64,000 nucleotides of DNA. It comes from Phycisphaerales bacterium. GTDB lineage: Bacteria; Planctomycetota; Phycisphaerae; Sedimentisphaerales; UBA12454. The stretch covers positions 98,412 through 162,411 of the forward strand of contig PLMU01000010.1 of NCBI GenBank assembly GCA_003142595.1, written 5' to 3'. Below the pieces are notes generated by a model that was not told where the DNA came from, did no database searches, and saw only the letters and a list, made by a program, of their open reading frames with translations. Of the stretch, positions 4,223 through 18,227 are shown piece by piece; the first letter of the stretch is position 1, and each line of letters starts with the position of its first letter. A program made the position numbers and the translations under genes.

Positions 4223-5674
4223 TCAGATGCCTCTTAATAAGATGTTGCGGGTCTTGTGCAAATCTTCCTGTTTAGCCAAAACCAACAGGGTGTCGTGGGC
4301 CTGGAGTTTAGTATTACCTTTGGGGACAATGAACCTTTTTTCCCTGCGGATTAATAATATAAGCGTTTCGCGCGGCAATCCTATTTCAGAAATATCCTTG
4401 CCGACTATCGAAGACTCAGGCGGAATGTCGTATTCGCGTGATTGCGTATCAATATCCTCAGTTTTATCAAACTCCAGCGGATAGCGAGGTCTGTGCTTTA
4501 TGGGATAATAAACTTTTAACCATCGCGCCAGCGGCAGAAGCAATTTGCCCTGCAGCAATACGGATGTAAGAACGATGAAAAATACTATGTTGAAAATTTT
4601 ATTCGAACCCGGATAGCCGACCATTAAAGGGAATGTCGCCAATATAATCGGCACGGCGCCTCTCAATCCAGCCCAGGATGCCAGAATTTTTTCATTGAAA
4701 GTAAAACTGCTTCTAAACAGGCAAATAAAAACTGCAATCGGCCGGGCAATCAGCATAAGAAAAACTGAAATCATAAGTCCCGGCCCAATGATGCCTACCA
4801 GTTGCGAAGGAATAACAAGAAGGCCAAGAACAATGAACATTGCAATCTGTGCCAGCCAGGCAAGGCCGTTATGGAAACGTGTTAAACTGCGTTTATATGG
4901 GAAATCGCTATTGCCCAGCACTATGCCGAAAATATAAACCGCCAGAAATCCGTTTCCTCTTAAAATTTCGGTAAGACTGTAAACCAGCATTACTATCGTT
5001 ATACTTAAAACCGGATACAGGCCTTCATAATCGAGATGTATCCTGTTAAAAACTAAAGAGGAAATTTTTCCTATGCCCAGCCCCAATGCCGCGCCGCAGG
5101 ACATACTAATGACAAAGCTTAAAACCATTTGGCTGGCTTTTAAATCGGCACCCATAAACTGAATAAGAGTTACCGTTAAAAAGACAGCCATAGGGTCATT
5201 ACTTCCGCTTTCGAACTCAAGCAATTGCTTGAGATTTCCTTTAAGGCCGATATTTCGTGAGCGAAGCACAGTAAAAACCGCAGCAGCGTCGGTTGACGAA
5301 ACGATAGCTCCCAACAGCATACCTTCTTTAAGCGAAAAATGTAAAATTATACGGGCGAATAATCCTACGGCAATCGCGGTGATAAATACGCCGACAGACG
5401 ACAGCAGGATTCCCCTTGCCAGCACAGGACGCACGCTTACCCAGTCAGTTTCCATCGCGCCTGAGAAAAGAATGTAAACAAGAGCGATTGTGCCGAACAG
5501 TTTCGCAAGACCCGCGTTGTTAAAGTAGAGTCCTCCCGGCCCATCGGAGCCTGCCAGCATTCCAATCCCCAAAAACAGAATCAGCGCAGGAATACCGAAT
5601 TTTTCGGATAACTTACTCGAGAAAATACCCATCAGCAGTAACGTTGCGGCAATCAGAAGGTAATATGTTGCCAT
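4223..5674 (-). CDS. K+/H+ (cation/proton) antiporter, NhaP2/CvrA type with C-terminal TrkA-C domain
   Basis: ~12 TM segments. The N-terminus LSEKFGIPALILFLGIGMLAGSDGPGG and the ESGSNDPMAV motif fit the type. The C-terminal soluble domain (IVGKDISEIGLPRETLILLIRR...L.AHDTLLVL) is typical of TrkA-C. Confidence 0.85.
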   Translation of the reverse strand: MATYYLLIAATLLLMGIFSSKLSEKFGIPALILFLGIGMLAGSDGPGGLYFNNAGLAKLFGTIALVYILFSGAMETDWVSVRPVLARGILLSSVGVFITAIAVGLFARIILHFSLKEGMLLGAIVSSTDAAAVFTVLRSRNIGLKGNLKQLLEFESGSNDPMAVFLTVTLIQFMGADLKASQMVLSFVISMSCGAALGLGIGKISSLVFNRIHLDYEGLYPVLSITIVMLVYSLTEILRGNGFLAVYIFGIVLGNSDFPYKRSLTRFHNGLAWLAQIAMFIVLGLLVIPSQLVGIIGPGLMISVFLMLIARPIAVFICLFRSSFTFNEKILASWAGLRGAVPIILATFPLMVGYPGSNKIFNIVFFIVLTSVLLQGKLLLPLARWLKVYYPIKHRPRYPLEFDKTEDIDTQSREYDIPPESSIVGKDISEIGLPRETLILLIRREKRFIVPKGNTKLQAHDTLLVLAKQEDLHKTRNILLRGI

Positions 5675-5843
5675 CTTTGCAGAATCCTTTCTATGCGATT
5701 TCCCTATAATTTTAAGATTATCCTAAAGAGCCGTCAATAGAAACTATTGTTTGCTTTGATATATTCAGCAGGCACAAACAGAGTATTGGTAAAATCTACT
5801 TGCTAATCGCCTTTTTCTTACATATCCTTATATAGACAAAAAT

Positions 5844-6671
5844 ATGAAAATAACTATATCGACATTATGTGACGCCAAAAAGCAGGGACGGAAATTTTCC
5901 GCTGTTAGCTGTTATGATTATACAAGTGCGAAGCTTGTTGCCGCTGCCGGTGTGGAGGTTCTGTTTATAGGCGACTCTGCTGCACAGTTGATGCTCGGCT
6001 TCGACTCAACTTTGCCGGCAACGATGGACTTTATGGTTGCAATAACCGCGGCAGTTAAAAAGGCTGCTCCTGATAGGCTTATTGTCGCAGATTTACCTTA
6101 TGAATCCTTTCAGGCCGGCACAGAGCGGATAATAAAAGATTCGCAAAGATTTGTTAAAGAAGGCAATGCTGACATTGTAAAGATTGAGGCAAATGACATA
6201 CAGATTGAGACAATAAAAGCGATTGTAAATACAGGAATTGCTATAATGCCTCATTTGGGTATAAGGCCGCAGACACTTCAATACAAGGCAAGAGGTACGA
6301 CTGCTGATGATGCTGCGGAACTTATAAAATTTGCCGAGCGAATGTGCGAAGCTGGTGCGTCTATGCTTTTGCTGGAAGGCACCGCAAGAGAAGCGGCTAA
6401 AATTATTACAGAAAAATTACCAATACCGATTATTAGCTGCGGGTCAGGGCCGGACTGCGACGGGCAGGTGCTGGTTCTGCCGGATATATTAAACCTTAGC
6501 GATAGTCATAAGCCGAAATTTTCGAAAAGTTTCGCGGATATCGGCAAAGCGAGTATCGACGCGATATCATTATACGACAGGCAGATTAAGCAGGGAGTTT
6601 TCCCTGACGATTCGCACAGTTATCATATGAAGAACGGCGAATACGAAAAACTTAAAAATTTGATTAGATGA
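5844..6671 (+). CDS. panB: 3-methyl-2-oxobutanoate hydroxymethyltransferase
   Basis: CYDYTSAKLVAAAGVEVLFIGDSAAQLMLGFDSTLP..., KIE, and MPHLGIRPQ motifs are typical of PanB; length 275 aa. Confidence 0.9.
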   Translation: MKITISTLCDAKKQGRKFSAVSCYDYTSAKLVAAAGVEVLFIGDSAAQLMLGFDSTLPATMDFMVAITAAVKKAAPDRLIVADLPYESFQAGTERIIKDSQRFVKEGNADIVKIEANDIQIETIKAIVNTGIAIMPHLGIRPQTLQYKARGTTADDAAELIKFAERMCEAGASMLLLEGTAREAAKIITEKLPIPIISCGSGPDCDGQVLVLPDILNLSDSHKPKFSKSFADIGKASIDAISLYDRQIKQGVFPDDSHSYHMKNGEYEKLKNLIR

Positions 6672-7916: not shown

Positions 7917-10409
7917 GTGACACGCGAAAGTTCACATATTATCCTATCAGCAATTATTCTGATAGTTCTTGCTGCCGGAGTTGTCGCAGCGGTATCTCAA
8001 AGCGGTTGCGACTGCAACACAGCAAAGACTGTTTCCCCAGAGAATAAGCTTGTTAAGCCTCTTGAGATTATGAAAGGCTTTGAAGAGGGAAATGAAAAAG
8101 TCAAGGTCATCGTCAATCTGGTCAAACCCGAGCAGTTACTGGAAACCGTCAACTGGCGGTCGAAAAGTTCATTGGAAAATCTTCGCAGCGAAATAAAATC
8201 CAGGCAGGAGCGGACATTAGCGACTCTGGCGCCGAGCGAATATAAGCTGCGACACAAATTTGAAAATCAGGCGGGGTTTTCCGCGGAGGTTACGCTGGAT
8301 TGCCTGAGCAAATTAATGGACGACGCCAACGTCGTATCGATTGAGCCGGTTTACCAATTGCAGAAACATCTGGCGCAGGGCATACCTCTGATAAACGGTA
8401 TGGTATACCGTTCGACTTATAATGGGCAGGGCGTTTCAATCGCTATCTGCGATACCGGCGTTGATTATACTCATCCGATGCTCGGCGGCGGGGGCTTTCC
8501 AAACAGCAAGGTCATCGGCGGCTACGATTTCGGTGACAAAGATTCAGACCCGATGCCGACAGAAGCCCACGGCACCTGCTGCGCCGGTATTGCCGCAGGA
8601 AATCTCGGCACTGTAGGCGATTATATCGGCGGTGTTGCTTACGGCGCAAAAATTTATGCTCTGAAAGTCGAAAACAGCGCCGGCTATATTTACGATGATT
8701 CTATAATTGCCGCGTGGAACTGGTGCATTACCCACAAAAACGATAATTCAGCGTATCCGATTCTTGTCATCAGCAATAGTCTGGGAGCCAGCAGGTACTA
8801 CAGCGCCTGCGACAGTTCAGAAACTGCATTCGCAACCGCCGCAAACAACACTGTTGCAGCGGGAATTACGATTTTGGCATCATCGGGAAACGATGGATAC
8901 TGCGATTCGATAGCCACACCGGCCTGTCTGAGCAATATCATTTCAGTTGGAGCCGTTTATGACGCGGCTTTCGGAACATTTTATCCCTGTGTCGATGCGG
9001 CTTCGTGTGCAGCCAAACAATCGACGACTGGCTGCACCACCGGTTATTATGCCACCGACATATCAGCAGCGGACAAGGTAACATCTTATTCGAATACTGC
9101 CTCATTTTTGAATATGCTTGCTCCTTCTAATCAGGCTTACACTACCGACATTGTCGGTTCAGCGGGTTATTCAACCGGCGATTATTATTCGGAATTCGGC
9201 GGAACTTCGGCGGCAAGTCCTTACGCCGCTGGAGCCGTTGCCTGTCTGCAATCGGCGGCAAAGGAAATTACTGGAAATTATCTTTCACCCGCTCAGGTTA
9301 AATCTATCCTGATTTCAACAGGCAATAATATAACCGACACAAAGGTTTCAATTACAAAGCCTCGAATCAATCTGGGTAACGCCATTGAAACCCTGGAGCC
9401 GAATTCGAATCCCTGCACGGATGTTACGATAGGAACCGGAACTTCGAGTTGGAACTATCCGATGCATACAAAAAATGATGACAGCAGGACACAGGTCATA
9501 TATCTGGCTTCTGAAATTGGTACTTCCGGCATTATCAATAGCCTTTCACTTAATGTAACAACTATACCTGGCCAGATAATGCATAACTGGACGATTCGAA
9601 TAAAGTACACAACCCTGAGCGCCTATAGCACTTGCTCGCTTGATTCGACCGGCTGGACAACTGTTTATCAGGCCACTGAGCCTCGCGGCAGTACAGGATG
9701 GCGGACTTTTACGTTTTCAACGCCTTTTCTATACAGCGGTACTTCTAATTTGCTTATTGATTTCAGCTATAACAATAGTTCCAAAACATCTAATGGTGCG
9801 TGCGCATATTCGACGCCTGGAAACTACAGAAGCGTTTACGCCTATTCAAACAGTACTAACGGCGACCCGCTTAGCTGGTCAGGAACCACATTTCCATCAA
9901 CGACCTGCAGTACCAATGTGCCTAATATACGCTTAACGGTTTGCCAGCCACAGGAGCCGAACGCTCCGTTTTTACACGCCGAATCTGCTTTTACTTCGGG
10001 ACTGTGCAATACGATTTTCTGGGGCACGGTTACGGATGCCAATCAATATTATGCTCAATGTTCTGCCGACCCGAATTTTTCTGTTATCGACAGCAACAGC
10101 GGCTGGATTACCGATGCGAATTACCAGTTCTGCGGATTGGTTAGCGGCCAGACTTATTATTATAGAGTAAAAGCGAGAAGTCAGTATCTTGTGGAAAGCG
10201 GCTGGTCGAATGTCGTCTCGTCGCGGCAGTGCAATATACCCGGAGATTTTCAGCCGGACTGTGCTGTTGACTTAAACGATTTAATGATAATGGCCAACCA
10301 GTGGCTGCAATCTTCCGGCACACTTTCAGCGGATATCAATCAGGATGGGATAGTAAACTTTATCGATTTTGCCGAATTGGCAAATCACTGGCTACAGGGC
10401 ACTCAATAG
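7917..10409 (+). CDS. Secreted subtilisin-family (S8) serine peptidase with FN3-like region and C-terminal dockerin-like repeat
   Basis: GTG start after AGGAAG. Has an N-terminal TM/signal. Catalytic triad contexts: AICDTGVDYTHP (Asp), HGTCCAGIAAG (His), GGTSAASPYAAGAVA (Ser). C-terminus has DLNDLMIMANQW...DINQDGIVNFIDFAELANHW (dockerin/EF-hand-like). Confidence 0.85.
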   Translation: MTRESSHIILSAIILIVLAAGVVAAVSQSGCDCNTAKTVSPENKLVKPLEIMKGFEEGNEKVKVIVNLVKPEQLLETVNWRSKSSLENLRSEIKSRQERTLATLAPSEYKLRHKFENQAGFSAEVTLDCLSKLMDDANVVSIEPVYQLQKHLAQGIPLINGMVYRSTYNGQGVSIAICDTGVDYTHPMLGGGGFPNSKVIGGYDFGDKDSDPMPTEAHGTCCAGIAAGNLGTVGDYIGGVAYGAKIYALKVENSAGYIYDDSIIAAWNWCITHKNDNSAYPILVISNSLGASRYYSACDSSETAFATAANNTVAAGITILASSGNDGYCDSIATPACLSNIISVGAVYDAAFGTFYPCVDAASCAAKQSTTGCTTGYYATDISAADKVTSYSNTASFLNMLAPSNQAYTTDIVGSAGYSTGDYYSEFGGTSAASPYAAGAVACLQSAAKEITGNYLSPAQVKSILISTGNNITDTKVSITKPRINLGNAIETLEPNSNPCTDVTIGTGTSSWNYPMHTKNDDSRTQVIYLASEIGTSGIINSLSLNVTTIPGQIMHNWTIRIKYTTLSAYSTCSLDSTGWTTVYQATEPRGSTGWRTFTFSTPFLYSGTSNLLIDFSYNNSSKTSNGACAYSTPGNYRSVYAYSNSTNGDPLSWSGTTFPSTTCSTNVPNIRLTVCQPQEPNAPFLHAESAFTSGLCNTIFWGTVTDANQYYAQCSADPNFSVIDSNSGWITDANYQFCGLVSGQTYYYRVKARSQYLVESGWSNVVSSRQCNIPGDFQPDCAVDLNDLMIMANQWLQSSGTLSADINQDGIVNFIDFAELANHWLQGTQ

Positions 10410-12531: not shown

Positions 12532-13317
12532 ATGAAAAAGTTAGTAACAATTTGTGCAGTAGCAGTAACTATTTTAGCAATTAGCAGTGCGGCGCAGGCC
12601 ATCATCTCAGGCATCGGTACCCCCACCAGCTCCTTCGCCAGTATCAATTTCGATGACACCACTTCGTTGAACCCTTCAGCAGTGCCCGGCATCACAAATT
12701 ATACTACCAGCGCGAGCACGTGGAACGGATCGGCCCTCACCATGCTAACGCAGACCGATGGCACCACGCTCGACCAAGCCAAGGGCGAACTCCGCGGGGA
12801 CATCTTCACTCCGACGAGCTATACCGTCAGTTTGAACAGCGTCACGCTCACCCAGTCAGCCGGAAACACCGGCTATGCCCACCTTAATCTCAGTTTCAAC
12901 ATCCAGTACCTGTTGGATAGTGGTGGGCTGGCCAGCCAGGCCACGCTCTTCCCGACCTTCGCCGTGAATGGCACCGTCCAGCCCGGAGGCATAGGCTCCA
13001 GCTTCGGCGGCAACATCCAATACTGGGGCATGGACTCCAGCTATAACCCATATTTGCTTGATACCGTGACTTACACCCCCGCCATCTGGACCACGCCTGG
13101 CCCCTTCAACAGCACCATCTCTGGCGTATCGGCCAACATCTTTACACCTCTGCTGCCGGGCACGGTGGGAGGGAATATTTCCACGCTTACCCTGATCGGC
13201 AACTTCAGCTTCATGGTGGACCCTGCCACGATAAGCCTCGAAACCATTCCCGAACCGGCAACAATGGCGTTGCTTGGTTTAGGCGTCTTGGGTTTGCTAA
13301 AAAAACGCAGGGCATAA
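12532..13317 (+). CDS. PEP-CTERM sorting-domain secreted protein
   Basis: Signal peptide MKKLVTICAVAVTILAISSAAQA. C-terminal IPEPATMALLGLGVLGLLKKRRA (PEP motif + TM + basic tail). GGAGG RBS ahead of the ATG. Much more C/G-ending codon use than its neighbours. Confidence 0.8.
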   Translation: MKKLVTICAVAVTILAISSAAQAIISGIGTPTSSFASINFDDTTSLNPSAVPGITNYTTSASTWNGSALTMLTQTDGTTLDQAKGELRGDIFTPTSYTVSLNSVTLTQSAGNTGYAHLNLSFNIQYLLDSGGLASQATLFPTFAVNGTVQPGGIGSSFGGNIQYWGMDSSYNPYLLDTVTYTPAIWTTPGPFNSTISGVSANIFTPLLPGTVGGNISTLTLIGNFSFMVDPATISLETIPEPATMALLGLGVLGLLKKRRA

Positions 13318-13353
13318 ACACAAAAATAAAACTTTAACGCAATTACAAATCAA

Positions 13354-13387
13354 AGGGCTGTGTTCAAAAAACACGGCCCTTTTTTTA
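13354..13387 (+). terminator. Rho-independent terminator
   Basis: AGGGCTGTGT / ACACGGCCCT stem (one G-U pair) with a short A-rich loop, followed by TTTTTTT. Confidence 0.7.
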
Positions 13388-13456: not shown

Positions 13457-14170
13457 TTATGCGAGAGATTTTATAAATTGAACTGCCTGTTTAGTAAAAG
13501 CGCCGTCAACCCATCGCGTTGGGCTGCGTTGAATGCTTAGTTTCCCCCCAAAATTCCCAAAGATTTTTCGCATTTCAGGTGACAAAATCTTTAAAGGTTT
13601 GCCTGCTCGGTCCTGCCCCATCGTGCTGATTAAAACCGCTTTACTCAACATGTGGCTGTTACGAGAACCCTTGACCAAAACAAGATTATTTTTTTGTTGC
13701 TCGTATATGCTTCTATGACGCACATGGAAATTATCGCCAAATAATTCCTGTATTTGAACAGGCGTAAATCCACTCGCGTATCCAGCAGCAGAGATTTCAA
13801 AATACCCCATTAGATATAATGCTGGTTCAGACTTGTAATCCCATCCTTCCAAACCACAATAGAAAATCAAATAATCGCCTTGTTGCAAATGTCGCAAACC
13901 AGCTTTAGGCGAGGTCGGGTCCCCATATGTGAAAGTGACAAATTCCGGGTCAAAGTGTATGGATTGATTGGTTACTTTAGCCTTGCGGGTTTCTGGAAAA
14001 TAATCTACCAGCTTTTTGCCATGTTTGCCTGTTGTGTTGCCATAAGTGCGTTCATCTTTTCTAAGGCCGTCAGGTATCGGGATGTACTCAAATGTACCAT
14101 CCTGAAATAATGGCCCGTGTATGCCTCCTGAACCGGTATCAATTCCTATTCTGACCAATGCGACTTTCAT
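13457..14170 (-). CDS. Uncharacterised protein, second gene of the coupled pair; resembles Nmad3-type 'nucleotide modification associated' proteins (from memory, unverified)
   Basis: 237 aa with no signal peptide or TM. N-terminus MKVALVRIGIDTGSGGIHGPLFQDGTFEYIPIPD, then HFDPE, QQGDYLIFYCGLEGW, and PALYLMGYFEI. Its start lies 3 nt after the stop of the upstream gene. Confidence 0.55.
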   Translation of the reverse strand: MKVALVRIGIDTGSGGIHGPLFQDGTFEYIPIPDGLRKDERTYGNTTGKHGKKLVDYFPETRKAKVTNQSIHFDPEFVTFTYGDPTSPKAGLRHLQQGDYLIFYCGLEGWDYKSEPALYLMGYFEISAAGYASGFTPVQIQELFGDNFHVRHRSIYEQQKNNLVLVKGSRNSHMLSKAVLISTMGQDRAGKPLKILSPEMRKIFGNFGGKLSIQRSPTRWVDGAFTKQAVQFIKSLA

Positions 14171-14173
14171 AAT

Positions 14174-14911
14174 TTATCTTTCTTCCAGAATCGAATAGAG
14201 CAATAAATTGAGATCATATTTCCTTTGTCCGCGATGAAGTGGACACGAATGAAACAATTTCGGTTCATCCCACAGGAAGCTGTATTGCGTGTCCCCTATT
14301 AATAGTGCCGCCTTACGACCACTTACACCCTTTTCATAATTTATATCCTTATGCCAATTGTTTGGATTCTTTGGATTGGCGTGAACATGATTCTGAATAG
14401 GCGGTCGGTAGTTATGAGGATTAAAGACATTTTTGTTAATCAGCTTGCTCTTAGGTTTAAATATGTCTCCAAACTTATCTTTATGGGCTAATTTGGCCTT
14501 TTTTACGGCATCAGGCAAATTCTCGGAAAACCAAAGGTCGCAATAAGATTTGAAAGCAATTTTGACTTTCATGAGATAAATTAAAGCGTTTTTTCCTTTT
14601 CCTTCCTTTTTTCCAGTAAATCCTGCAATCCAAATATTATCGCACCACTTATCTATAGTCCGAAATGTACGCATATAATGTTTACACGTGCAAAGCGATA
14701 TAACATCGCCTTGAAAGTTAGGGGCACTTCCTTTTTGAACGAAATCGCCTTCATGATTTTTGACAGTATCAACGATGTAACTATACACAGTTGCCGGAGT
14801 TTTACCTATCTTTCGTCGCAAGTCCTTAAGCGAGAGTTTTAGGTTTTTTGCCAGGCGCCCAGTTTGAGGAAAGGGCTGGTGGGAAAAGTCGGATATACAA
14901 CTCATGGTCAA
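14174..14911 (-). CDS. Uncharacterised protein, first gene of the coupled pair; resembles Nmad2-type 'nucleotide modification associated' proteins (from memory, unverified)
   Basis: 245 aa. VYSYIVD...GSAPNFQGDVISLCTCKHYMR...IWIAGFTGKK...ALIYLMKVKI...FGDIFKPK...HVH...AALLIGDTQYSFLWDEP. A Cys-x-Cys-x-His cluster is present. AAAGGAA RBS ahead of the ATG. Confidence 0.55.
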   Translation of the reverse strand: MTMSCISDFSHQPFPQTGRLAKNLKLSLKDLRRKIGKTPATVYSYIVDTVKNHEGDFVQKGSAPNFQGDVISLCTCKHYMRTFRTIDKWCDNIWIAGFTGKKEGKGKNALIYLMKVKIAFKSYCDLWFSENLPDAVKKAKLAHKDKFGDIFKPKSKLINKNVFNPHNYRPPIQNHVHANPKNPNNWHKDINYEKGVSGRKAALLIGDTQYSFLWDEPKLFHSCPLHRGQRKYDLNLLLYSILEER

Positions 14912-14941
14912 ATTCCTTTTGATAAAAGGCGTCTAACAATG

Positions 14942-14973
14942 ATTATACAATCTGTATAAAACGCCAAATACAG
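14942..14973 (-). promoter_or_regulatory. Putative -10 element overlapped by nested palindromes (operator-like) upstream of the two-gene cassette
   Basis: Minus-strand TATAAT corresponds to plus 14942-14947. TTATACA-ATC-TGTATAA is a perfect 7-bp inverted repeat (14943-14959). CTGTAT-N10-ATACAG spans 14952-14973. No convincing -35 was found. Confidence 0.35.
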
Positions 14974-15153
14974 ACTGTTTCTGCCAGTATAACAAGTTCC
15001 TGTTGCAATTCCTCGTTGCTTCGCCAAAATTATATCTCTTTTTATTTTCAAACTCAACTGATTTTATATACTTAAATATATCCGCGAAAATCCACGTAAT
15101 CCGCGGTTAAAAAACCTTTTAATTGCCTCAAATTGCGGTTAATATATATAAAG

Positions 15154-16506: not shown

Positions 16507-17745
16507 ATGACAAAATTCAGCGAAATTCTGGAAATACTCGACGACCTCAAAAAAGGCAAAATGATTGTCCTTGTCGATGATGAAGACAGGGAGAATGAGG
16601 GTGATTTAGTATGCGCAGCCGAGATTGTTACGCCTGAAATCATAAATTTTATGGCGACGCACGGCAGGGGGTTAATTTGTCTGCCTTTGACAAGTGAAAA
16701 ATGCGATTCGCTGAATCTTCATCCGCAGACGAGCGAAAACACCGCCAGACTCGGCACTGCGTTTACCGTCAGTATCGACGCCGCGCAGAATATCACGACC
16801 GGTATTAGCGCAGCCGACCGCGCTCATACAATCAAAACTGTAATCGCCGATAATGTAAAGCCGTCCGACCTTGTTCGGCCCGGACATATCTTTCCGCTGC
16901 ACGCCCAGGCCGGCGGCGTTCTGACCCGCGCAGGCCAGACCGAAGGCGCAGTCGATTTAATGAGGCTTGCGGGAATGAAACCGGCAGGGGTTATCTGCGA
17001 AATTATGAACGAAGACGGCACAATGGCCCGCGTTCCGCAGCTTCTGGAATTCTGCGATAAGCATAATTTTAAAATCACTACCATCGCCAAGCTCATCGAG
17101 TATCGTCTGCAGCGAGAAAGCCAGGTAAAGCGAATACAATCCGTTTTTCTGCCGACCGATTACGGCGAGTTTCAACTTATCGCCTATAAATGCATTACCG
17201 ACGCCGAACCGCATCTTGCCCTGTGCAAAGGCGATATCGGCAAGCTCGACGAAAAAGGAAATCCCGTTGTTACAACCGAGCCTGTGCTCGTTCGCGTTCA
17301 TTCCGAATGTCTTACCGGCGATTTGTTCCATTCGCAAAGATGCGAGTGCGGCTATCAACTCGTTGCCGCGATGCAAATGATTGAAAAAGCCGGCCGCGGC
17401 GCGGTAATTTACCTGCGCCAGGAAGGCAGGGGCATCGGACTTGCAAACAAACTTCACGCTTACAAGCTCCAGGAGCAGGGACTTGACACCGTAGATGCCA
17501 ATCTTAAGCTCGGCTTCCGCGCCGACCGCCGCGATTACGGTATAGGAGCTCAGATAATTCGAGACCTGGGCCTTAAACAGATTAAAATTTTGACGAATAA
17601 CCCGAAGAAAATTTCACGCCTCGAAGTTTATGGAATCAAAATTGTCGAACAGGTGCCGTTAATCGCACCGGTCGGCCCGTATAATAAAAGTTATCTCAAG
17701 ACCAAAAAATATCGGCTCGGTCACAAACTTAATGAGGATTTATGA
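16507..17745 (+). CDS. ribBA: Bifunctional 3,4-dihydroxy-2-butanone-4-phosphate synthase / GTP cyclohydrolase II
   Basis: DDEDRENEGDLV, and TVSIDA (RibB half). VRVHSECLTGDLFHSQRCECG and GRGIGLANKL (RibA half). Start placed at ATG 16507 (MTKFSEILE). Confidence 0.92.
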   Translation: MTKFSEILEILDDLKKGKMIVLVDDEDRENEGDLVCAAEIVTPEIINFMATHGRGLICLPLTSEKCDSLNLHPQTSENTARLGTAFTVSIDAAQNITTGISAADRAHTIKTVIADNVKPSDLVRPGHIFPLHAQAGGVLTRAGQTEGAVDLMRLAGMKPAGVICEIMNEDGTMARVPQLLEFCDKHNFKITTIAKLIEYRLQRESQVKRIQSVFLPTDYGEFQLIAYKCITDAEPHLALCKGDIGKLDEKGNPVVTTEPVLVRVHSECLTGDLFHSQRCECGYQLVAAMQMIEKAGRGAVIYLRQEGRGIGLANKLHAYKLQEQGLDTVDANLKLGFRADRRDYGIGAQIIRDLGLKQIKILTNNPKKISRLEVYGIKIVEQVPLIAPVGPYNKSYLKTKKYRLGHKLNEDL

Positions 17746-18227
17746 TGCGATTTATAATTTCACTTTTAACTGTCATTTCAATATTGCCTTTTATCGGCTG
17801 CGAACAGATTCAGAACCAGCCTTCGGACGCTTATTCGGGAAAATTTCAGAGGACCTGCCTTTTCTCTCCGGAAAAGATTCAGTTTAATCAACTTACCGAA
17901 TCCACTAAGCCCGGCCAGATTACAGCTTATATTGACGTATTCGACCAGTTTGGCTCCCGTATCAAGGCCGCCGGCGTCTGGCGGTTTGAGCTTTTCGGAT
18001 ATGTTCCGCGTTCCGCCGACCCGATGGGCTCAAGAGTTAATCTCTGGTCCGACATCGAATTGACCGATCCTGTAATAAATAACAATGCCTGGCAGGAGTA
18101 TCTCCATTGCTACAAATTTGATTTGGATATCGATACCGACCTGGCCGGCAAAACTTATATCCTTCAGGCCGTCTGTTTCACCGCCGATGGCCGCCGTCTG
18201 TCCGATACATTTGAGTTGAAACATTAA
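17742..18227 (+). CDS. Hypothetical lipoprotein
   Basis: The lipobox-like LPFIGC follows a hydrophobic N-terminus. ATGA overlaps the ribBA stop. No recognisable domain. Confidence 0.5.
   Translation: MMRFIISLLTVISILPFIGCEQIQNQPSDAYSGKFQRTCLFSPEKIQFNQLTESTKPGQITAYIDVFDQFGSRIKAAGVWRFELFGYVPRSADPMGSRVNLWSDIELTDPVINNNAWQEYLHCYKFDLDIDTDLAGKTYILQAVCFTADGRRLSDTFELKH

Follow-up and report, generated by a model that had tools for sequence, protein, structure and literature searches.

In a 64,000-nucleotide stretch of a Phycisphaerales bacterium genome (contig PLMU01000010.1; the whole stretch is hereafter called the window), two adjacent minus-strand genes encode protein A (243 aa, 14174-14905) and protein B (237 aa, 13457-14170). 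A survey of their relatives showed that B, a member of the Nmad3 family, is the core of a unit consisting of Nmad3 and an exchangeable partner, here the Nmad2-like protein A, with no other conserved component; this unit is laterally mobile, and its partner evolves in an arms-race-like manner. The interpretation that we favour, with a probability of about 0.4, is that the locus, a self-contained two-gene operon, serves as a laterally exchanged module of conflict or defence directed at a nucleic-acid base. Judged by their sequences, B is an ordinary Nmad3 member and A a divergent, partial Nmad2, a kind of protein already known and defined computationally; both families ("nucleotide modification associated domains") are said to have been defined by the Aravind group, and a 2013 paper reportedly named them. 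What is new here is the core-plus-swappable-partner architecture, three partner classes lacking a Pfam family, natural fusions, a PUA-like lead for Nmad3, and evidence of recent exchange.

An earlier note, made from the letters of the window alone, had described two minus-strand open reading frames (ORFs) separated by a 3-nt gap (14171-14173), and both were confirmed, one at 14174..14911 (245 aa from a TTG codon) and one at 13457..14170 (237 aa). The length of 245 aa given there for the first protein holds for the ORF but not for the probable true start, as homologues and database gene calls use an ATG at 14905, which yields 243 aa. All the motifs quoted in that note are present in the translations (VYSYIV...GSAPNFQGDVISLCTCKHYMR, IWIAGFTG, ALIYLMKVKI, HVH and RGQRK in A; VALVRIGIDTGSGGIHGPLFQDGTFEYIPIP, GDYLIFYCG and ALYLMGYFEI in B), and neither protein has a transmembrane segment, the maximal Kyte-Doolittle mean over 19 residues being 0.89 in A and 0.87 in B; both are soluble and basic (isoelectric points 9.67 and 9.44, respectively). 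Because 193 homologues of A and 1849 of B were found in a collection of 5.8 billion proteins, and because the 1840-bp cassette is identical at 100% across six independent assemblies, A and B are real genes rather than chance ORFs.

To survey Nmad3, the B profile was searched against one genome per species (185,579 species), which returned 162 relatives, and the best 80 of these 162 were analysed. They are 53-97% identical to B and belong to 12 or more phyla, with members in the Acidobacteriota, Planctomycetota, Chloroflexota, Desulfobacterota-type lineages, Verrucomicrobiota/Lentisphaerae, Gemmatimonadota, Nitrospirota, Bacteroidota, Dormibacterota, Alpha- and Gammaproteobacteria, as well as the archaeon Methanothrix. 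A partner gene directly adjoins Nmad3 in 74 of the 80 loci, and the A/B-type pairing, whose synteny the earlier note had proposed to check, thus recurs elsewhere. Compilation of the partners revealed (i) an A-type (long) Nmad2 upstream of Nmad3 in 20 loci, (ii) a short canonical Nmad2 upstream in 26, (iii) one of three further classes upstream, namely c1 ('LIYKRTHxGDP..CMG'; n = 9), c2 ('EMRSDPxWEFGSFGCTxCH'; n = 7) and c3 ('LHYFYHSP'; n = 6), (iv) a short Nmad2 downstream on the same strand in 5 loci, and (v) an A-type Nmad2 downstream and convergent in 1 locus. Proteins c1, c2 and c3, of 160-220 aa, hence fill the place of Nmad2 upstream of Nmad3 in 22 of the 80 genomes. None of them has a Pfam family, and hhalign, run on shallow alignments, detected no homology among c1, c2, c3 and Nmad2; a '[DN]P...G...C' pattern after the N-terminal strand is common to c1, c2 and Nmad2 by eye only (the full c1 motif reads 'LIYKRTHxGDP..G.FG..CMG'). 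No third gene recurs near the pair in the 80 loci, where the 150 nearest flanking proteins represent 131 Pfam families.

Viewed from the side of A, 80 metagenomic A-type loci were found to have an adjoining Nmad3 in 52 cases, a contig ending too early in 18, and room but no Nmad3 in about 9. Two of the solo A-type genes lie at 8001-8687 of locus L172 and 8001-8681 of locus L171. Among the solo genes, one sits in an arginine-biosynthesis cluster of a Dehalococcoidia metagenome-assembled genome, amid small DUF2442/DUF2283 genes, and another adjoins an M48-peptidase/HTH_3 pair and a ParE toxin.

Fusions were sought among 1.84 billion representative proteins by exhaustive searching with HMMER, which gave 1051 Nmad3 clusters whose longer hits were inspected. 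Nmad3 and Nmad2 are joined in a single polypeptide in six representative clusters (P0338, P0359, P0365, P0389, P0390 and P0335), while Nmad3 is fused to a c1 partner in P0348 and a c3 partner to Nmad3 in P0316. Since both fusions and separate genes occur in both orders, Nmad3 and its partner appear to function as a single physical unit. In a neighbour-joining tree of Nmad3, built without support values, the partner classes are interleaved, c1 occurring in three separate places. Near-identical Nmad3 proteins are accompanied by a short Nmad2 in L047 (a genome labelled Kuenenia) and by a long A-type Nmad2 in L050 and L054, which looks like a recent partner swap.

Two plasmids carry more distant relatives. 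Megaplasmid pHG1 of Cupriavidus necator H16 (L081) harbors an Nmad3-like gene that is only distantly related (31.5% identity), and the ORF directly upstream, absent from the (incomplete) gene table of PLSDB, encodes a class c1 partner; the two lie at 5498-6022 and 5962-6654, with genes for ParDE, a restriction endonuclease, an AAA ATPase and a DEAD/DEAH helicase on their flanks. On the Halorientalis plasmid pHOS300 (L082 6001-7293), an Nmad3-like N-terminal domain forms part of a 430-aa fusion protein, whose gene adjoins an annotated 7-cyano-7-deazaguanine synthase (QueC-like), a PfkB kinase and an ATP-binding protein; this fusion may be tied to deazaguanine chemistry or to a Qat-like defence system.

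The mobility of the cassette was assessed against two related planctomycetes (L015 and L169) which carry it at the same site, between the short-chain dehydrogenase/reductase (SDR) gene and pdxJ. Flanking genes show a synonymous divergence (dS) of 0.52-1.69 from L015 and 0.24-0.53 from L169, with ratios of nonsynonymous to synonymous divergence (dN/dS) of 0.07-0.26 and 0.05-0.18, respectively; the six named housekeeping flanks lie at 0.05-0.15, the upper values coming from an uncharacterised 161-aa ORF at 17742-18227. For B, dS is 0.060 in both comparisons (dN/dS 0.21 with L015 and 0.31 with L169), and for A it is 0.16 and 0.28 (dN/dS 0.70 and 0.45). Because the dS of B is far under that of the flanks, B has been exchanged between these lineages well after their divergence. 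Protein A evolves fast; its changes cluster in three stretches (residues 21-40, 111-180 and 211-243), and the APNFQGD...LCTCKH block is almost fixed. In a more distant Sedimentisphaerales genome, the cassette was found at an unrelated locus. Taken together, the low dS of B relative to the flanks, the fast evolution of A and this different location indicate that the cassette is mobile accessory DNA. The earlier note had seen acquired DNA here too, and that view is borne out by synonymous divergence, not by base composition: the GC content of the cassette is 40.6% (A 38.9%, B 42.6%) as compared with a window mean of 44.6%, placing it at the 9.6th percentile of equal-sized windows, so that it is mildly AT-rich as claimed but not at the suggested value of about 35%, and composition is weak evidence of foreign origin.

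Protein B matches the Pfam family PF18754 (Nmad3) with 113.4 bits (curated cut-off 27; E = 1.7e-32) over residues 2-223 and profile positions 1-229 of 247, a full-length match far above the cut-off that confirms the family named in the earlier note. The best 120 of its 1849 homologues are 66-95% identical to it, and PF18754 matches are recorded for all 120. Its invariant polar residues are R7, D11, D34, D39, H72, D74, E76, D84, K89, R93, D99, E125, N147, H149, Q214, R215 and R219, and four of its loops, with many Gly, Asp and His residues, are highly conserved. No significant match in the PDB came from sequence-profile searches, whether made with the A family, the B family or canonical Nmad2; an NCBIfam scan of A and B found no match, and PHROGs returned for B only a family of unknown function. 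When the AlphaFold2 model of B was compared with the PDB by Foldseek, the top matches were all PUA-like, comprising the N-terminal domain of McrB from Thermococcus gammatolerans (TgMcrB), ZmASCH, the EVE proteins PH1033, MJECL36 and Rpa0253, and YTH domains, with the TgMcrB domain scoring E = 1.7e-3 in its free form and 6e-3 bound to 5-methylcytosine DNA (probability 0.98 and 0.97, respectively). As to the structure check proposed in the earlier note, for a PUA-, EVE- or ASCH-like fold, the best matches of B are all of this kind but marginal, and A has none that is significant. On the strength of the model, B likely adopts the PUA-like fold of the McrB N-terminal domain/ASCH/EVE/YTH group, short of this being established. 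Like PUA-like readers, it contains a 'GD-x-x-x-F-Y-x-G' plus hydrophobic-strand pattern; it does not match them at the sequence level, however, and it is larger and carries four extra invariant loops. One Nmad3 homologue, P0244, has an extra C-terminal region of 180 residues (about 240-419) without a Pfam match, in which 'GDYVASFVV...ICVGLYHV' resembles a second PUA/EVE-like strand pair.

Protein A matches PF18753 (Nmad2) with 34.8 bits (curated cut-off 26.1; E = 1.5e-8). The earlier note's assignment to Nmad2 thus stands as far as the cut-off goes, but the match is confined to the N-terminal core (profile positions 12-96 of 200, where canonical members match 2-198), and the C-terminal half shows no similarity. 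Consistently, hhalign aligned the A family with canonical short Nmad2 at 97.3% (E = 1.6e-11) over A residues ~44-163 and the N-terminal ~110 columns only, and gave a probability of 0.3% for the two C-terminal halves. Protein A lacks what characterises a full-length Nmad2 at positions ~100-200, namely the 'LISRHFYYFG' block and the C-terminal cysteines. It is laid out as an N-terminal extension (residues 1-38; family-specific and conserved), an Nmad2-like core (~57-149) and a C-terminal half of its own kind. It has in common with canonical Nmad2 the core motifs APN-x-x-G...L-x-x-CK, W-I-x-G-x-x-G, L-[IV]-Y-x-M-x-V and GD-[IN]-[IF], and it differs from canonical Nmad2 by the 38-residue extension, a CxCKH motif, and an invariant HxH in place of the C-terminal cysteines; on these features it is to be placed as a divergent Nmad2 subfamily. 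Residues invariant in the A family include C72, C74, K75, H76, H173, H175, G146 and D147, and C74-K75 correspond in alignments to C27-K28, which are invariant in canonical Nmad2, and to the CK of the Nmad2 protein from the E. coli system DS-4 (see below). The Cys/His cluster (C72/C74/H76 plus H173/H175) is a probable zinc site. A is modelled confidently by AlphaFold2, with a mean predicted local distance difference test score (pLDDT) of 89.4 and a predicted template-modelling score (pTM) of 0.88.

Under the favoured interpretation of a base-targeting conflict module, A and B would be two subunits working as one unit. B would be the conserved core, a PUA-like barrel holding a flipped-out non-canonical base or modified nucleotide, with its invariant Asp/His/Gly loops as a catalytic or ligand-binding site, and it may catalyse a reaction on the bound base. 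Members of the PUA-like fold, such as the McrB N-terminal domain and EVE, YTH and ASCH domains, hold a flipped-out and usually modified base or nucleotide. A would be the fast-evolving, exchangeable partner, binding zinc through its Cys/His cluster and either setting the target specificity or controlling B. The pair would act on a non-canonical base or modified nucleotide, most likely that of an invader, and spread by lateral transfer. The PUA-like pocket with its ligand, the catalysis, the zinc binding and the defence role are the points that we infer. A more far-reaching version, which we consider rather doubtful, holds that Nmad3 and its exchangeable partner form an unrecognised, widespread two-subunit conflict system, in which a PUA-like enzyme core flips out a non-canonical invader base and attacks it by cleavage, excision or de-modification, or else senses a modified nucleotide, and in which at least five partner families, partly zinc-binding and three of them without a Pfam family, set the specificity or restrain the core.

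Two precedents make a base-targeting conflict module plausible, the Nmad2 protein of DS-4 and BapA. DS-4 ('NTTI'), described for E. coli in the DefensePredictor study, is an experimentally validated anti-phage system of five genes, encoding a thymidylate synthase, a deoxynucleoside monophosphate kinase, a 5-hydroxymethyldeoxyuridine DNA kinase, a TIR protein and an Nmad2 protein (PMC13092281). The latter (WP_047174762.1) is homologous to the core of A (hhalign 92%, E = 6e-7; BLASTP 41% over 66 aa). Unlike the cassette, DS-4 has five genes and no Nmad3, and its other four genes were found neither near the cassette nor among the recurrent families of the 150 neighbours, a single TIR match in the PADLOC scan apart; nor does the cassette have the kinase, thymidylate-synthase or other nucleotide-metabolism neighbours of the context in which Nmad2 and Nmad3 were named. 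BapA is an ASCH-fold enzyme that strips glucose from glucosyl-5-hydroxymethylcytosine DNA and is encoded with Brig3 in an overlapping two-gene defence operon from environmental DNA; it is predicted to flip the hypermodified base out of phage DNA, and hydrolysis of the modification was shown (PMC13160076). Brig3-BapA implies that PUA-like/ASCH proteins can serve as defence enzymes. It differs from the cassette in that its partner is an AAG-like DNA glycosylase of known fold, while no glycosylase fold is detectable in the cassette. Besides these, the literature describes Metis, a system that senses a nucleotide. Type IV restriction proteins offer another comparison, from which B departs in having no recognisable nuclease or GTPase fused or adjacent to it; neither A and B nor their conserved neighbours yielded a nuclease or NTPase domain. 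The cassette is therefore neither DS-4 nor a type IV restriction system, and it is not in PADLOC.

A substantial body of observations weighs against a defensive, base-targeting module. PADLOC-DB v2 gave zero families at E <= 1 for A and B, and among the 150 nearest neighbours in the 80 loci only about 4-6 match defence models, with no recurrent family (sporadic single matches were to a type I S subunit, a TIR protein, PDC-S18, mad5 and WYL) and no recurrent integrases or transposases; the enrichment in defence islands that the earlier note had proposed to look for is thus not seen. In the window, the cassette is surrounded by housekeeping genes and has no flanking repeats, and solo A-type genes also occur on long contigs. 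A and B show no detectable effector domain of a known kind, be it a nuclease, glycosylase, TIR or other, the identity of B across phyla (55-73%) is unusually high for a defence gene, and a literature search found no biochemical study of Nmad2 or Nmad3. On the structural side, the model of B is moderate (pLDDT 76.3, pTM 0.77), its conserved loops at residues 11-16, 31-41, 69-79 and 81-89 falling below 50, and its PUA-like matches are marginal (E = 1.7e-3 to 0.1; template-modelling scores 0.28-0.48), while A has no significant structural neighbour by Foldseek (best E = 1.6 in the PDB and 0.13 in BFVD) and does not register as PUA-like (ZmASCH, E = 2.4 in the PDB). The defence module of the earlier note accordingly keeps the rank of a proposal, given no PADLOC match, no island enrichment and no relatives in phage collections. 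As regards the latter, A and B had no tblastn match in 50,697 phage genomes, and a scan of IMG/VR with the B profile found no relatives, which leaves a phage origin of this subfamily unsupported.

Three other explanations were weighed, each of which we regard as improbable. In one, the pair is a toxin-antitoxin-like addiction module, with B as a conserved toxin that damages or modifies nucleic acid and the upstream partner as an interchangeable antitoxin or inhibitor, an idea that overlaps with abortive-infection defence. The tight two-gene operon with the variable gene upstream fits this well: genes abut or overlap as in type II toxin-antitoxin pairs with exchangeable partners, the spacer being 3 nt here and the commonest junction in homologous loci a 4-nt overlap (22 of 50). 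So do the exchange of several unrelated partner families onto one conserved downstream protein, the solitary, scattered copies amid housekeeping genes without mobility genes, the recent transfer with an upstream gene under relaxed or diversifying selection, and the ParDE, ParE or DUF2442/DUF2283 pairs that adjoin some loci. Both proteins are, however, large for such a pair (~240 aa); a Pfam scan found no DNA-binding antitoxin domain; the invariant Cys/His and GD motifs of the partner look like the conservation of an enzyme or zinc module, not of a labile antitoxin; and it is common for the gene order to be reversed and for stable fusions to occur in either order. A-type "antitoxin" genes moreover occur alone, whereas Nmad3 is without a detectable partner in only 5 of 80 loci (one of them at a contig end). 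Alternatively, the pair could be a non-defensive enzyme that works on the cell's own DNA, tRNA or nucleotide pool, writing, removing or salvaging a modified base there, for which YqfB, an ASCH enzyme that deacetylates N4-acetylcytidine, would be the analogue. The Pfam family names point to nucleotide modification, B is very conserved (as seen in its best 120 homologues) and under purifying selection, its neighbours in the window are housekeeping genes, and the pair has no link to known defence systems. Nucleoside- or S-adenosylmethionine-related enzymes are occasional neighbours (Ppnp; S-adenosylmethionine synthetase in 3 loci), and the distant fused gene on the haloarchaeal plasmid adjoins QueC-like and PfkB-kinase genes. 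Such an enzyme is hard to reconcile with a very patchy distribution (162 matches among the 185,579 species representatives), with near-identical Nmad3 proteins taking different partner classes, with a synonymous divergence of B 4 to 28 times below that of the flanks, or with the fast evolution of A, and no metabolic neighbour is conserved.

The third explanation bears on the origin of the pair. The earlier note had read A and B as mutually related, and they could be diverged paralogues of one architecture, so that together they would form a pseudo-symmetric heterodimer, each subunit a PUA-like barrel. The predicted elements do follow each other in parallel order in both models (N-terminal strand, hairpin, short helix, 'GD/W-x-G' strand, long hydrophobic strand, two helices, C-terminal sheet, helix), and both families have in common an invariant short motif, (F/Y)GD-x(2,3)-PK. 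The sub-threshold Foldseek matches of A, whose aligned regions were not inspected, include, besides ZmASCH, an ATP sulfurylase and a CRBN complex, which we take to contain PUA-like domains. Against this stand a BLASTP E value of 2.6 between A and B, hhalign probabilities of 0.4% for A versus B and 0.3% for canonical Nmad2 versus Nmad3, and the lack of a significant structural match of A to anything. At the sequence level, paralogy is unsupported by BLASTP and hhalign and was rejected; the two folds may be akin.

An Nmad2 protein was recently shown to be part of a functioning anti-phage system. The present locus, together with its relatives, defines a minimal and portable unit of ~1.5 kb, small enough for direct cloning and testing. 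Should the core be a PUA-like enzyme acting on modified bases, it would extend a fold known mainly for passive reading by a new type of catalysis, and might provide a tool to detect or edit modified bases. The fusion proteins suit structural work, and Cupriavidus necator H16, a cultured host with a distant version on pHG1, is a possible experimental entry point.

Table 1. Coordinates of the cassette, its local elements and examples of the alternative partner classes (positions in the window unless a locus is named)
Feature	Position	Strand	Evidence
Gene A	14174..14905	-	ORF, Pfam Nmad2 match, homologues; exact 243-aa product P0001
Gene B	13457..14170	-	ORF, Pfam Nmad3 match, homologues
Spacer ATT, 3 nt, from TAA stop of A to ATG of B	14171..14173	-	sequence
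Intergenic region upstream of A, common with divergent SDR gene	14906..15132	-	sequence
Candidate sigma-70-like promoter (-35/-10: TTGAGT, 17 nt, TATAAT)	15057..15029	-	consensus scan, 10/12 matches
AAGGAA, 8-13 nt 5' of ATG of A	within 14906..15132	-	sequence
Hairpin, 13-bp stem, A-runs and T-runs on its sides	13352..13382		terminator scan; consensus match only
Partner class c1, example	L004 8218-8709
Partner class c2, example	L005 4874-5500
Partner class c3, example	L078 9411-10010

The elements around the two genes are listed in Table 1. A purine-rich stretch, GGAAGAAAG, lies within the 3' end of gene A, ahead of gene B, and the layout of the junction is compatible with translational coupling. 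The total of promoter-like sites in the region upstream of A is not above shuffle expectation, and the listed -35/-10 pair is thus a candidate only. The hairpin sits where the 3' ends of B and the PEP-CTERM gene converge and is a candidate bidirectional intrinsic terminator that would end the two-gene operon. Neighbours of the cassette in the window encode dihydrodipicolinate synthase, PdxJ, a PEP-CTERM protein, an SDR, a CDP-alcohol phosphatidyltransferase and RibBA. As the Rfam scan found no RNA family around the cassette and the repeat scan no flanking repeats, we rejected the idea that it is transposon-like or under riboswitch control.

In three assemblies (GCA_003142275.1, GCA_936421645.1 and one Logan assembly), an intact Nmad3 ORF corresponding to window positions 13457-14170 was left uncalled (L163 10736-11449, L168 4297-5010 and L169 4497-5207), and an opposite-strand ORF of 73 aa inside Nmad3, equivalent to that at 13880-14110 (+) of the window, was called instead. 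Loss of Nmad3 in these assemblies was therefore rejected, the ORF being intact and its omission due to gene calling. Finally, the adjoining PEP-CTERM gene (12532-13317, plus strand) is GC-rich, as the earlier note had stated (55.2%, and 68.7% at third codon positions). It is absent from the otherwise syntenic L015, and its dS against L169 is 0.062, as compared with 0.24-0.53 for the flanks, with a dN/dS of 0.81. This pattern suggests that it is a second gene at the site that was exchanged independently or evolves fast.

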